Positions 26,603 through 43,412 of a stretch of DNA of 46,345 bases are shown here, in pieces. How positions within the stretch are numbered: the first letter of the stretch is position 1; the number at the start of each line of letters is the position of its first letter. Below the pieces are notes generated by a model. It did no database searches. It was given only the letters and a program-made list of their open reading frames with translations, and was not told the origin of the DNA. A program made the translations under genes and the position numbers. This DNA comes from a phage: the sequence record LC918680.1. One strand, 5' to 3'.

Positions 26603-27525
26603 TAGTTTAGCAAGTCGTTTGCTTTGTACACTTTCTTTCGTATGCCTGTTTTAAATGACTCACCGTCATTAGGAACTACAACATCAACACCCCTATCGTC
26701 AGCAACAGCGAGTATATCGCTATCAGAATCACGGCAAGCAATTCTGAACTTCCTTGACTTGTCGCGGTGGATAACCATCTCCATATTGTAACAGGAGAAA
26801 GCAACAAACACTTCGCGCCCACCAGTAGCAAGGTGAACACGTATGCCATCAATATAATTGTCAACAACATAAGTATAACTATCATCCTGCTTAGAACCAA
26901 TAACGGAAACAGAATCACGAGTGTAATCACCAGCAAGGAACTTAACATTTGAATCCTCATCAATAAACATTACGTTACAGAACTCATCACTAAGCCCATC
27001 TTCATAAACCATCGAACAAGGGATTGCGTGAATCATTGAACCATTTTTAGCTATACCAACATCAAAACCAAACTCGTCATAAATACCCTCGTATGTCGTG
27101 AGTGGACTAGATTCAACTCGCTGAGTCCTCTCCATGACCTCAAGAACTTTCTTGTGGTCTACTTGAGCGCCCATTTTATAACGCAGCGTTCTTGATGCTT
27201 GCTTGTTAGCTTTAACTATAACCTCAATTGGTGTTAAGTTCAGCCAGTCACCAAGCAAATTTACTGAATCGGCGAAGGACAATCCAGTGCACTTCATGAC
27301 CCACCCTATACCGGAGTCACTTCCGCATTTCGAACAAATTGCCGCGCCATTTCCTTTTTCACTGCCTATTTCGTCGGTAAATCTGAATCTGTCAGTGCCA
27401 AAGCAGTATGGGCATGGTCCGTGCTTCTTACTTAGGTGTCTATCATTCCAACCAAGTTCCTTTGCATAAAATGATTTCCACAATCCGGCCATCTTAGGTA
27501 TAACTTCATTCTTATCGTAATTCAT
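26602..27525 (-). CDS. DNA primase (zinc-binding + Toprim-like)
   Basis: CPYC...CSKC zinc-ribbon near N-terminus, acidic D-rich C-terminal region. Confidence 0.7.
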   Translation of the reverse strand: MNYDKNEVIPKMAGLWKSFYAKELGWNDRHLSKKHGPCPYCFGTDRFRFTDEIGSEKGNGAAICSKCGSDSGIGWVMKCTGLSFADSVNLLGDWLNLTPIEVIVKANKQASRTLRYKMGAQVDHKKVLEVMERTQRVESSPLTTYEGIYDEFGFDVGIAKNGSMIHAIPCSMVYEDGLSDEFCNVMFIDEDSNVKFLAGDYTRDSVSVIGSKQDDSYTYVVDNYIDGIRVHLATGGREVFVAFSCYNMEMVIHRDKSRKFRIACRDSDSDILAVADDRGVDVVVPNDGESFKTGIRKKVYKANDLLN

Positions 27526-27881
27526 TTGCTTAAACCGTGATTTTCGTGAAAGTTGTATTTTCTCTCTGCTTCAATTCTTACTTTATACGCCTGCTCTGGA
27601 GTATCTAAGTTACCAAGGTGTAGCTGCTTGCCGTCAACCTTGATGTAAGCCTTAAATTTTCCGTGATTTAGCTTTGCCACTCCACAATAACCAGTTGTTG
27701 ATAAAACGCTAAGCTTGCAATTTCTTGAGTTACCTTGATTTGTTGTTACTCTTAGGTTTTCTATTCTGTTATCTAATTTGTTATGGTTTATATGATCAAT
27801 GTAGTCGCCATTTTGAAGTTCTCCATTAAACATCTCCCACACAACTCTATGTACATAAGTCCTAAAGCCATTAACAGACAC
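27522..27881 (-). CDS. HNH homing endonuclease with AP2-type DNA-binding domain
   Basis: HNH motif DHINHNKLDNRIENLRVTT followed by AP2-like GYCGV...FKAYI segment. Confidence 0.8.
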   Translation of the reverse strand: MSVNGFRTYVHRVVWEMFNGELQNGDYIDHINHNKLDNRIENLRVTTNQGNSRNCKLSVLSTTGYCGVAKLNHGKFKAYIKVDGKQLHLGNLDTPEQAYKVRIEAERKYNFHENHGLSK

Positions 27882-28052
27882 TTTGTAATAGCCAGATGTA
27901 GATAGTGAGTTGCACTCATCGCCAACCTTAACACGTCTTGCAGTGCTAATCTTTCAATGCAATTTGCCATCTACATAGTAAAAATAATCATGCCAGTTCA
28001 TTTTCTTCTCCCCAATAAAAAGGGATGTACCGATTATGGCACATCCAATTAT

Positions 28053-28526
28053 TTAATCTTTAGCTTTTCGTGCTGCTTCGTTGGCAATCTTATTCTTGCG
28101 CCATGGTCGACATGGTGGCTTTGTTGCTAGTTCAGCTTCGGTAACAACCCGCAGCATATGGCGTTTCTTGCATCTAAGCGTTAATGGCTTACCGTTTCCG
28201 TCGAATTGCAGGTCTGGTCGGCAGAACGTAGCTCTAAAGCCTTCCTTATTTCGCTTGTATGCATTGTGAGCCCTCTGGGCACCTCGAGCCGAAATCATCC
28301 CGCGATCAAACCATTGCTCTACAGTCTGGTGAGATACATTTAACTGCTTGGCGATATTGGCCTTCGTGCCGTAGAAATCAAGAACCATCTCCAGACGAGC
28401 TCGTAGCCCAGCCTTTACTTCATCTTTCAATACGTAGTAGCCTGACGGTCGTTTGCGCTGTTTCTTGTCTTGCGTGCGGATGGTTCCGTTATTGCCGTTG
28501 ATAGTTCGCTTGTCAATTTCACACAT
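28053..28526 (-). CDS. basic HTH DNA-binding protein
   Basis: HTH-like IAKQLNVSHQTVEQWF; highly basic termini. Confidence 0.45.
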   Translation of the reverse strand: MCEIDKRTINGNNGTIRTQDKKQRKRPSGYYVLKDEVKAGLRARLEMVLDFYGTKANIAKQLNVSHQTVEQWFDRGMISARGAQRAHNAYKRNKEGFRATFCRPDLQFDGNGKPLTLRCKKRHMLRVVTEAELATKPPCRPWRKNKIANEAARKAKD

Positions 28527-28539
28527 CTCATTACCTCAA

Positions 28540-28554
28540 TAGCATTTTTTGTTA
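28540..28554 (+). promoter_or_regulatory. boundary motif copy 7 (degenerate)
   Basis: TAGCATTTTTTGTTA about 70 nt upstream of helicase ATG. Confidence 0.4.
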
Positions 28555-28622
28555 AACAATAGGTTCGATAATTGTTATTATACAGCAATGCAACGAACTA
28601 ACAAACTGTCGGGATATTTAAA

Positions 28623-29432
28623 ATGCTTCCAGTAGAGCGCTTAGTGGCGAACTTTGATAAAGAGAAAATTAAACAGATTCAGAAAGATTACCAGTTTGGA
28701 GACATAACGCCTTACGAATTCCAGTGCGTGACATTTGACGCAATCGGTAAGGCTATTGGCAAGTACGAAGCGCCATTCATCGCAGACCTGTCGGTGTCTG
28801 CTGGTAAGACAATTATACTCGCCATGATTGGGAAACGAATGGAACAGCTTGGCCTTCCTTACATGGTCCTATCTCGCCAGTCAGAGATTATCAGCCAGAA
28901 CGCAGAGGAACTTCGTAATTTCGGCATCCGTAATAGCGTCTATTGCGCTGGCCTTAACGTTAAATCAGTTTACTATCCAACCATAGTGGCTAGTGAGGGA
29001 ACGGCTGCTAACGGCTTGTTTAAGGGGCTTGGTGACTATGCTCCTGCTGTTATCGCGATAGATGAGTGCTTAACTGGAGACACGATGATAACCACCGATT
29101 CAGGGATGATGAGGATTGATAGCGAAGACCTTATCAATCATAAAATAAAATGCATAAACGAAAGCACTGGTGATTACTTCTATCATAAGCCAAAAAGAGT
29201 TTTTACTAATGGTGTAAGACATGTATCATCAATTAAATTAGAAAGCGGAGAGGAAATAAAATGCACGAGTACACACAAACTTTATTCGAACGGCTGCTGG
29301 GTAGGAGCGGGAAAACTTCGTATTGGGATGAATCTGTCGCTAGACGGCTCGCAGGACAAATTTACGAAAAAGCTCCTGCGTGCAAGTGTGGCTGTGGTGA
29401 AAAAGTTATGCCGCATTCAAGCAAGGGGTTAG
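28623..29432 (+). CDS. SF2 helicase N-terminal part (motifs I-II) fused to intein N-terminal splicing domain
   Basis: Motif I SVSAGKT, motif II AIDE followed by intein block A CLTGDTMITT and block B GEEIKCTSTHKLYS; frame ends at stop 29430-29432. Confidence 0.8.
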   Translation: MLPVERLVANFDKEKIKQIQKDYQFGDITPYEFQCVTFDAIGKAIGKYEAPFIADLSVSAGKTIILAMIGKRMEQLGLPYMVLSRQSEIISQNAEELRNFGIRNSVYCAGLNVKSVYYPTIVASEGTAANGLFKGLGDYAPAVIAIDECLTGDTMITTDSGMMRIDSEDLINHKIKCINESTGDYFYHKPKRVFTNGVRHVSSIKLESGEEIKCTSTHKLYSNGCWVGAGKLRIGMNLSLDGSQDKFTKKLLRASVAVVKKLCRIQARG

Positions 29433-42415: not shown

Positions 42416-42584
42416 AAAAGGAGATGAGATTTACAGCAAGCACACATTGAACAGATTCATCATTGAATACACTGATGGAAATTGCGTCATCCTGAAAAGT
42501 ATTGATGGCAAGTATGATGAAACCAGATGCTACTACATGCATGACATTAAAGAGAGCTTTAGACATGTCATGGTGAAGAAATGA
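42405..42584 (+). CDS. hypothetical small protein
   Basis: 59-aa ORF overlapping neighbours at both ends. Confidence 0.45.
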   Translation: MIYKKGDEIYSKHTLNRFIIEYTDGNCVILKSIDGKYDETRCYYMHDIKESFRHVMVKK

Positions 42585-42724
42585 TTTACGTTCACACGTA
42601 CTATACAGGTAAGTTTAACAGCGTTAAGCACGTGCGAGTTTATGAATCCTACAATGAAGCAAAAGCTCAGATGGATGTTCTTGGTGGTGCCGTGCATCGA
42701 TGCGAAGTAGTTGAAGAATTATAA
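42581..42724 (+). CDS. hypothetical small protein
   Basis: 47-aa ORF; stop immediately precedes a boundary motif. Confidence 0.4.
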   Translation: MIYVHTYYTGKFNSVKHVRVYESYNEAKAQMDVLGGAVHRCEVVEEL

Positions 42725-42725
42725 A

Positions 42726-42740
42726 TAGCACGAATTGCTA
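42726..42740 (+). promoter_or_regulatory. boundary motif copy 16
   Basis: TAGCACGAATTGCTA directly after stop TAA. Confidence 0.6.
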
Positions 42741-42799
42741 AACATGAATTGGGATAGGTTGTTATACTTATCCCATCAAAACGAGATGAGGAATTGACG

Positions 42800-42979
42800 A
42801 TGCGTTTTAGACAATCAGCCGCCAAGCTCCAGGCTAACAACTTCGATGGTTACACAACATTTATCATCGCCAAGGCTTTCGGTTTGCATGATGAACCTGA
42901 GGTTCATACTATCCACTTAAATGAAGAGCAAGCTCGAGAACTGGCTTTCGAGATTCTTGATCAATTGAATAAAATTTAA
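42800..42979 (+). CDS. hypothetical small protein
   Basis: ATG 42800 with SD GAGGAA upstream (track start 42794 is TTG). Confidence 0.45.
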   Translation: MRFRQSAAKLQANNFDGYTTFIIAKAFGLHDEPEVHTIHLNEEQARELAFEILDQLNKI

Positions 42980-42989
42980 GGTTTATAAA

Positions 42990-43412
42990 ATGAAATTAAG
43001 CAAATCTCAAAGGGAAGAGTTGAAGGGCAAGTTCGGTGGTCGCTGCGCTTATTGTGGGTGTGAACTACCTGAGAAAGGCTGGCATGCTGACCATGTTGAA
43101 CCGGTGCTACGTAAATCTGAGGTATGCATGAAGGCAGCGGAGAAAGGAACTTTCAAGCTGAAGGCGACAGGTGAGTTTAATCGACCACAAGCTGATCGAA
43201 TGGAAAACCTTTACCCTGCATGTGCTCCATGCAACCTCATGAAAGCTTGCTATTCCCTTGAAATGTTCAGGGAACAGGTGTCTCTTCAAGTCGCTCGCGG
43301 GCGTAAGAGCAGCATGAATTTTCGCACGGCAGAGCGGTTCGGCCTCATCTCCATAGTGGAGGATCCAGTTGTTTTCTGGTTTGAGAAGTTTGAGCAAATT
43401 AACAAAATCTGA
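42990..43412 (+). CDS. HNH endonuclease (free-standing)
   Basis: CAYCG...HADHVEP...CAPCNLMK gives Cys-x2-Cys / H-x-D-H / Cys-x2-Cys-N HNH architecture. Confidence 0.75.
   Translation: MKLSKSQREELKGKFGGRCAYCGCELPEKGWHADHVEPVLRKSEVCMKAAEKGTFKLKATGEFNRPQADRMENLYPACAPCNLMKACYSLEMFREQVSLQVARGRKSSMNFRTAERFGLISIVEDPVVFWFEKFEQINKI

Follow-up and report, generated by a model that had tools for sequence, protein, structure and literature searches.

LC918680.1 is the genome of a T1/Rtp-like siphophage, a coliphage of the Drexlerviridae (Braunvirinae), and the window referred to below is the whole stretch of 46,345 nucleotides (nt) analysed under this accession. It contains three nuclease-type genes of two families, all at or near the places given in a preliminary description made from the letters alone. 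Two are of the HNH type and one is of the LAGLIDADG type, the last being encoded between two parts of a helicase gene that carry the halves of an intein. Both family assignments, HNH and LAGLIDADG, are backed rather than refuted by profile searches. When the same loci were compared in related genomes, as had been proposed, each of the three elements was found in some relatives and was absent from others. Each also coincides with a shift in local sequence identity, as could be expected from gene conversion, and this supports the suggestion that these genes contribute to mosaicism. Taken as a whole, the explanation judged probable is that this mosaic T1-like coliphage holds three independent selfish nuclease elements, one of which is a split-intein ‘fractured gene’ inserted at DE/CH of helicase motif II, whose products would be joined by trans-splicing.

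The nearest records, those of Escherichia phages ES and AN_ECEAS, reach approximately 95% identity in part of the region, and phiA2-1, CEB_EC3a and Rtp stand further from the window.

A helicase gene in two parts

The helicase locus comprises three open reading frames (ORFs) on one strand (Table 1). In frame 0, the N-terminal third of a RadD-like superfamily 2 (SF2) helicase runs to ...VIAIDE and continues as CLTGDTMI...TSTHKL...GMNLSL before meeting a stop at 29430-29432. The same frame reopens at a downstream ATG as MSFLRELV...VWDIEMPEHHNFIADGVVAHN, followed by CHMVDHMD and the remainder of the helicase. This C-part matches Helicase_C in Pfam as well as RadD-like helicases, and a Met some 12-15 codons upstream of its AWNTK motif is conserved, preceded in the window by GAGG. 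Ten frame-0 stops, from 29430 to 30029 and including the N-part's own, separate the two parts, and the LAGLIDADG gene that lies between them occupies the -1 frame.

The intein-less alleles of Rtp and phiA2-1 read AIDECHHMD and AIDEAHMVD, respectively. They place the insertion exactly at DE/CH of helicase motif II, such that Cys+1 is the C of the DECH box.

This arrangement departs from a cis-splicing intein with an embedded nuclease, which would be read as a single ORF; here frame 0 is closed by stops and the nuclease is in the -1 frame. The preliminary description had the LAGLIDADG endonuclease inside a helicase intein. A LAGLIDADG gene does indeed lie between intein halves, but it is a separate ORF and not an in-frame domain. 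The contiguous intein with an embedded domain gives way to a helicase carried by two genes with a split intein, and to a nuclease that is out of frame and overlaps both.

Table 1. Features of the window, with positions counted from its first letter
Feature	Position	Strand	Remarks
Helicase N-part gene	28623-29432	+	N-extein 28623-29066 (ends ...AIDE); N-terminal intein half 29067-29429 (121 amino acids, aa), then stop
LAGLIDADG gene, 284 aa	29261-30115	+	-1 frame relative to helicase; own Shine-Dalgarno sequence, GGAGAGG, 7 nt upstream
5' overlap, 172 nt	29261-29432	+	Intein block B to tail of N-terminal half (frame 0); nuclease residues 1-57 including CKCGCG (-1 frame)
Helicase C-part gene	30048-31757	+	C-terminal intein half 30048-30206 (...VVAHN); Cys+1 30207-30209; C-extein with Helicase_C
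3' overlap, 68 nt	30048-30115	+	Nuclease 3' end; leader of C-terminal intein half
Primase gene	26602-27525		Neighbour of HNH_3 gene
Free-standing HNH_3 gene, 159 codons, nonsense-interrupted	27522-28001	-	HNH_3 and PHROG 99; ATG start at 28001
Longest intact ORF of HNH_3 gene, 119 aa	27522-27881	-	GTG start; tail of the 159-codon gene
TGA at codon 16 of HNH_3 gene	27954-27956	-	Codon-by-codon comparison with phiA2-1 GP34 (TGG, Trp); frame translation
Terminator-like hairpin after HTH gene	28023-28046	-	Same hairpin sequence in Rtp and ES
HTH gene	28053-28526		Neighbour of HNH_3 gene
Free-standing HNH endonuclease gene, 140 aa	42990-43412	+	Pfam HNH, PHROG 2118
Block of 552 nt replacing 5 nt between SU57_00012 and SU57_00013	42980-43531	+	blastn against SU57
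Small hydrophobic ORF, 44 aa (MNTWLMMDEVLVEVLPWLLWLLGFMIIYII...)	43423-43557	+	Annotated in AN_ECEAS; mostly inside the 552-nt insertion
tRNA-Arg (anticodon CCT)	45139-45214	+	Just upstream of small-terminase-like gene; relatives annotate the same tRNA
Small-terminase-like ORF	45752-46276

The intein halves are recognized by family profiles. Residues 149-221 of the N-part match intein_Nterm (NCBIfam TIGR01445; 32.9 bits, cut-off 24.5), and the C-part matches intein_Cterm (NCBIfam TIGR01443; 27 bits, cut-off 15.6). Together they show the marks of a class 1 intein (Hint domain), namely N- and C-terminal splicing regions, Cys1, the T..H of block B, a terminal HN and a +1 nucleophile. Joined end to end, the halves match the Spl DnaX mini-intein (PDB 7cfv) at E=5e-15; the two aligned stretches, 2-88 and 137-174, lie on either side of the usual position of the nuclease. 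With the N-terminal half alone as query, HMMER was run exhaustively against 1.84 billion cluster representatives (50% clustering) and gave 24 best matches of 236-313 aa, each of which stops at, or a few residues from, the end of the matched region; a word-indexed search of proteins with this query found no match. D-E-Cys1 and the C-T-x-x-H of block B are invariant in an alignment of the 24 N-part clusters, and WDIEMP.(H/N)HNF...AHN is conserved, together with Cys+1, at all loci.

The layout itself recurs. Seventeen loci were compared, consisting of the window, ES, AN_ECEAS, two Pectobacterium phages, six metagenome loci and six IMG/VR loci. All 17 consist of an N-part, a C-part that keeps the frame of the N-part and, between the two, a -1-frame nuclease, at nuclease identities down to 37%. 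In ES and AN_ECEAS the three ORFs have lengths identical to those of the window. Five Pectobacterium phages with 42% identity came from a tblastn search that had the nuclease as query; in each the nuclease adjoins a helicase gene, and the two examined share the layout, their overlaps being 166 and 71 nt. Nuclease identity is 85, 76, 65, 54, 45 and 45% at the six metagenome loci and 69-37% at the six from IMG/VR. Between the halves there are 7-14 frame-0 stops per locus, counting the N-part's own. The 20 nuclease homologues found in a 5.8-billion-protein database are all 167-294 aa in length and none lies within a long precursor.

Selection was estimated from the proportions of nonsynonymous (pN) and synonymous (pS) differences by the Nei-Gojobori method among the split-bearing loci. 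The intein cassette differs from that of ES at 3 positions, too few for the ratio of nonsynonymous to synonymous substitution rates to be informative, and more distant loci were therefore used. With every segment read in its own frame, pN is far below pS in the N-extein, in the non-overlapping parts of both intein halves, in the nuclease and in the C-extein. This purifying selection, the retention of the splicing residues and the presence of the same layout in diverged loci all point to a fractured gene with a split intein.

In the records of ES and AN_ECEAS (3110-6244 of the stretches compared) the helicase pieces are called ‘hypothetical protein’, ‘minor tail protein’ and ‘putative single-stranded DNA binding protein’. 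The AN_ECEAS record marks no gene at all for the nuclease, and in effect neither record annotates the fractured helicase.

The LAGLIDADG nuclease and competing readings of the locus

The product of the -1-frame gene matches Pfam LAGLIDADG_2 at 29.2 bits (cut-off 25). Its AlphaFold model has a predicted local distance difference test (pLDDT) value of 85, and Foldseek places it closest to I-WcaI (E=1.5e-9) and I-SceI (9e-9), with the intein-borne PI-SceI ranking 10th. The profile match, the two acidic motifs (GDG and GDDG, invariant in 19 sequences) and a predicted fold with two copies of alpha-beta-beta-alpha-beta-beta-alpha identify a double-motif LAGLIDADG protein. It resembles I-SceI and I-WcaI in these motifs and in fold (target-normalised template modelling score approximately 0.66-0.73), whereas sequence identity to them is 15-17%. 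Unlike these enzymes, it has an extra N-terminal region of about 85 residues, modelled at low confidence and containing an invariant CxCGCG, and it is encoded between intein halves rather than in a group I intron. A scan of the whole window against Rfam at the gathering threshold, made for group I or II introns around the nuclease gene, returned the tRNA only, and an intron was rejected on this result.

The start of the nuclease is well marked. GGAGAGG precedes the ATG at the same spacing in Abuela, the protein begins with MH.(Y/E)(T/S)Q at all loci, or in one case MYGKSQ, and the -1 frame has many stops upstream of this ATG and, at every locus, none downstream. Met50 (29408), which several annotators have used as the start, was rejected; it is F, G or V elsewhere and has a poor Shine-Dalgarno sequence.

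It follows from this start that the nuclease gene overprints the tail of the N-terminal intein half. Within the 172-nt overlap the -1 frame is free of stops in 12 of the 12 loci tested, for which the per-locus chance is 0.0004-0.012 under synonymous recoding of the intein frame. Upstream of the nuclease ATG, the prevailing substitutions are those silent in the intein frame alone, while within the overlap the classes are balanced, and third-position variability moves to the nuclease frame some 50-80 nt into it. The stretch that encodes the invariant CKCGCG of the nuclease gives RASVAVV in the intein tail. On the evidence of the stop-free frame and the phase of substitution, the overlap appears to be genuinely dual-coding.

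In the mechanism proposed for this locus, the two helicase polypeptides, of 269 and 569 aa, would associate through their intein halves and trans-splicing would produce a 664-residue helicase (148 + 516 extein residues), with its DECH box restored and a junction peptide ...AIDECHMVDHMD. The separately translated nuclease would cut the intein-less helicase alleles of co-infecting phages, around ATAGATGAG^TG(T/C)CA, and repair of the cut allele would copy the whole three-gene cassette. Compared with ES, the window has 3 differences across 29100-30700. The whole cassette, taken together with roughly 800 nt on its downstream side, likewise has 3, in a near-identical tract at about 29100-31000, whereas most of the helicase sequence that flanks it differs at 5-22 positions per 100 nt. 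Near-identity across the cassette fits a recent transfer with co-conversion.

Several points weigh against the split-intein reading. ES and AN_ECEAS are the same in the helicase region, and hence supply one close comparator only. Single-sequence AlphaFold prediction on the joined halves gave a pLDDT of 34, so that complementarity of fold rests on the sequence matches, and the signal that substitution phase gives across the overlap is modest. Conservation of the catalytic residues could in part reflect constraint from the nuclease frame, although this applies to the overlap only; Cys1 and the C-terminal intein blocks lie outside it. Lastly, splicing, cleavage and homing are inferred.

Three other readings of the locus have been weighed against this evidence. 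In the first, the intein is contiguous and the LAGLIDADG domain is read in its frame, which would make the frame changes either mistakes of sequencing or assembly or signs of very recent decay. As such an intein would have it, the two helicase parts share a frame, and the nuclease is found between intein blocks, at the canonical endonuclease position. The same frames and overlaps are nonetheless present at every one of the isolate and metagenome loci, as diverged as they are, and the many frame-0 stops, the lack of any homologue within a long protein and the purifying selection in each separate frame leave this reading effectively refuted, with a vanishingly small probability. Programmed ribosomal frameshifting, first by -1 and then by +1, might otherwise yield a single precursor from the three ORFs. 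In its favour, the frame of the nuclease is -1 at all loci, and a G_GGA_AAA heptamer, in the helicase frame at 29309-29315 (+) and 48 nt past the nuclease ATG, is present in four of eight loci. It is absent from the other four, one of them the locus with 85% nuclease identity, and is probably incidental. The second shift would need a site of its own, for which no conserved candidate was seen, and the nuclease and the C-part each have a conserved ATG and a Shine-Dalgarno sequence. As no slippery heptamer is conserved in the overlap, frameshifting was rejected and is regarded as highly improbable.

More serious is the possibility that the layout is real but no protein splicing takes place, either because the intein halves act as a dimerisation handle, as in the NrdA fragments of Aeh1, or because the helicase is dispensable and its pieces functionless. 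Fragmented phage enzymes that assemble without splicing are documented (PMC3045599). Against this, Cys1, the T..H pair, the block F Asp, the HN and Cys+1 are invariant across highly diverged loci, outside the overlaps as well as within them. An unspliced complex would also hold about 170 foreign residues within motif II, interrupting the DE/CH box, and both exteins are under strong purifying selection. A locus without splicing is thus considered unlikely, and the split-intein reading is preferred.

The two HNH genes and the wider genome

The first HNH gene lies between the primase gene and the HTH gene, just downstream of the terminator hairpin of the latter. Its longest intact ORF matches Pfam HNH_3 (PF13392) at E=2e-18 (66.1 bits, cut-off 24.8) and PHROG 99, ‘HNH endonuclease’, at 5e-57. 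The preliminary description had called it an HNH-AP2 endonuclease, of which the position and the HNH assignment stand, but AP2 found no backing from profile or sequence searches. There was no match to the Pfam AP2 profile (PF00847) at E<=10, none to an AP2 structure in a phmmer search of PDB sequences with the C-terminal 66 residues, and no BLASTP alignment with an AP2 sequence of AtERF1. Some depositors name 46%-identical relatives ‘AP2 domain protein’, and a divergent AP2-like fold may be present. In its catalytic motif, and in being free-standing, intergenic and polymorphic for presence, the gene resembles those of the I-HmuI-type HNH_3 homing endonucleases of phages, and the whole protein has a weak match to I-HmuI itself (PDB 1u3e; E=0.03). 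It is unlike this type in that the copy in the window has a nonsense codon and the proposed C-terminal AP2 domain was not detected.

The reading frame of this gene is interrupted by the TGA at codon 16, and the intactness implied for it earlier does not hold. Apart from codon 16, only seven codons differ from GP34 of phiA2-1, and uninterrupted 159-residue matches of 97-98% identity occur in ten phage records, always adjoining the primase gene. The copy in the window is probably inactive, and is most simply taken as a gene that lost its function recently. There is some possibility, though a doubtful one, that it is still functional, through low-level UGA read-through by tRNA-Trp, by which the ancestral Trp would be restored, or re-initiation at GTG 27881, or that the TGA is a sequencing error. 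The nonsense codon is single, in a gene that otherwise closely matches intact copies, and in E. coli a UGA with A after it is comparatively leaky as a stop; a sequencing error could also account for the TGA, and this must be counted against inactivity. On the other side, no Shine-Dalgarno sequence precedes GTG 27881 and a start there would drop 40 N-terminal residues. The sole tRNA of the phage is Arg(CCT), which is not a suppressor, and rescue by a phage suppressor tRNA was therefore ruled out.

ES, AN_ECEAS and Rtp are without the HNH_3 gene and have in its place a 58-nt spacer with the HTH terminator hairpin. The window and phiA2-1 are 96-100% identical from 27200 to 28099, and in most bins beyond this interval the value falls, mostly to 80-95%; ES can be aligned at this locus only from 28014 rightwards. 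At approximately 28014, the upstream end of the HNH_3 gene, the best-matching relative changes from phiA2-1 on the left (primase and HNH_3) to ES/AN_ECEAS, at about 95%, on the right. The gene therefore sits on a mosaic junction, as gene conversion would give, and the association of nuclease genes with such junctions is a general pattern (Barth et al., PMC10448857). Its flanks, near-identical to those of phiA2-1, suggest that the gene was gained through gene conversion between the HTH terminator and the start of the primase gene.

The second HNH gene lies among the early genes, as had been described. Its product matches PHROG 2118, ‘HNH endonuclease’, at 8e-55, and the CxxC...DH...N...CxxCN motif is intact. 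The gene lies in the 552-nt block that is missing from the empty allele of SU57, and matches to T145P1 are shortened to a similar extent at this site. Homologues are scattered among phages of Escherichia, Salmonella, Klebsiella, Edwardsiella and Vibrio and other siphophages. The gene falls in a block of 98.6% identity shared with AN_ECEAS (42824-43794), the neighbouring pieces being at 80-97% with unaligned gaps between them. The 44-aa hydrophobic ORF that follows has a Shine-Dalgarno-like sequence of its own, and a PHROG search with it gave no match. The HNH gene and this small ORF form a discrete intergenic insertion among the early genes, one that probably spreads like the nuclease cassette of the helicase.

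That the second HNH gene homes is a reasonable inference from its indel status and patchy distribution. The claim is limited by a marginal Pfam HNH match (PF01844; 23.6 bits, cut-off 21.4) and by weaker PHROG matches to ‘endonuclease VII’ families. The protein might instead be an accessory nuclease, endonuclease VII-like or acting in repair; those secondary matches favour such a role, and depositors label its relatives either ‘DNA repair ATPase’ or ‘HNH endonuclease’. An accessory role accords poorly with a discrete intergenic indel that has an empty allele, with a distribution that is patchy across unrelated siphophage genera, and with a high-identity block set beside a more divergent piece and unaligned gaps. 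It is accordingly held to be the less probable role, and a homing-type insertion is preferred.

Elsewhere in the window, the terminase large subunit begins at position 1. A search for a fourth homing-type nuclease, which was not exhaustive, found none among the listed 25 of 43 families matched by 72 ORFs in Pfam, nor in ten further ORFs. A second small indel in the early-gene region, at 42413-42575 (about 160 nt), has no SU57 counterpart, and the alignment pieces flanking it overlap in SU57. On the minus strand, a 243-aa ORF at 20169-20900 (-) has an FPPC...S motif reminiscent of DNA cytosine methyltransferases, and Pfam at E<=0.01 gave no match to it.

Relation to fractured genes and other inteins

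Fractured genes, in which split inteins surround a free-standing homing endonuclease gene, were described by Dassa et al. 2009 (PMC2677866), and are the source of gp41-1, NrdJ-1 and IMPDH-1. The helicase locus agrees with them in having two host-gene ORFs, each with an intein half, and an independent nuclease gene between them, and in its setting among phage DNA-metabolism genes. The 3' end of the nuclease gene also overlaps the downstream gene, by 68 nt here compared with overlaps of 6-69 bp there. The nucleases of that paper are GIY-YIG or Vsr-like, and LAGLIDADG is unmentioned in it (PMC2677866), whereas the nuclease in the window is an I-SceI-like LAGLIDADG protein whose gene additionally overprints 172 nt of the upstream half at its 5' end. 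The host protein is a RadD-like SF2 helicase rather than a gp41/DnaB helicase, and the present carriers include cultured coliphages (ES and AN_ECEAS) and Pectobacterium phages.

A second point of comparison is provided by the non-canonical inteins of actinobacteriophages, whose nuclease ORFs are out of frame or antisense (Gosselin, Arsenault and Gogarten, bioRxiv 10.1101/2025.01.02.630785). There too the nuclease lies within the DNA footprint of the intein and outside its frame, an arrangement that Gosselin et al. (bioRxiv 10.1101/2025.01.02.630785) propose to have originated when a free-standing nuclease gene invaded an intein. Those inteins are, however, treated as single splicing units; the out-of-frame nucleases are endonuclease VII-like and the LAGLIDADG cases are antisense. 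In the window, by contrast, the LAGLIDADG gene runs in the sense direction in the -1 frame, and stops close the intein frame, hence the split.

The contiguous proteins recovered with the N-terminal half were cyanobacterial DnaX proteins, in which the intein is inserted at IDE/CHML. The phage helicase reads AIDE/CHMV (29058-29075 and 30204-30215 of the window), which is the same local Walker-B motif. The DnaX inteins also supply the best match of solved structure (7cfv), but they are contiguous and lie in an AAA+ clamp-loader subunit, unlike the split intein of an SF2 helicase found here. The shared motif suggests that an intein may possibly have jumped between unrelated ATPase families.

No earlier report of the helicase split-intein locus was found in open-access text, and the paper on the Pectobacterium phages is silent on it. 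The evidence leans, with some reserve, towards a family of natural split inteins, widespread in enterobacterial siphophages and so far undescribed, that comprises at least 24 N-part clusters at 50% identity. In this family, a sense-strand, -1-frame, I-SceI-like LAGLIDADG gene would stably overprint both intein halves within a three-gene homing cassette, and trans-splicing would rebuild the DECH box of an SF2 helicase, with the likeness to DnaX at IDE/CHM hinting at a jump between host protein families.

The two HNH genes, taken alone, are ordinary homing-type genes of a kind that is routine in phages. The helicase locus extends fractured genes to the LAGLIDADG family, and the mislabelling of its pieces by annotation pipelines means that the architecture is being missed. 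Since the phages of E. coli and Pectobacterium that carry the split intein can be cultured, direct tests are possible of trans-splicing, of the homing of the three-gene cassette and of its cost to the phage. Split inteins from mesophilic enterobacterial phages are also candidate tools for protein ligation. Finally, the long, conserved overlap between a splicing domain and a nuclease bears on the origin of the association between inteins and their nucleases, that is, on whether a mini-intein was invaded or a full intein decayed.

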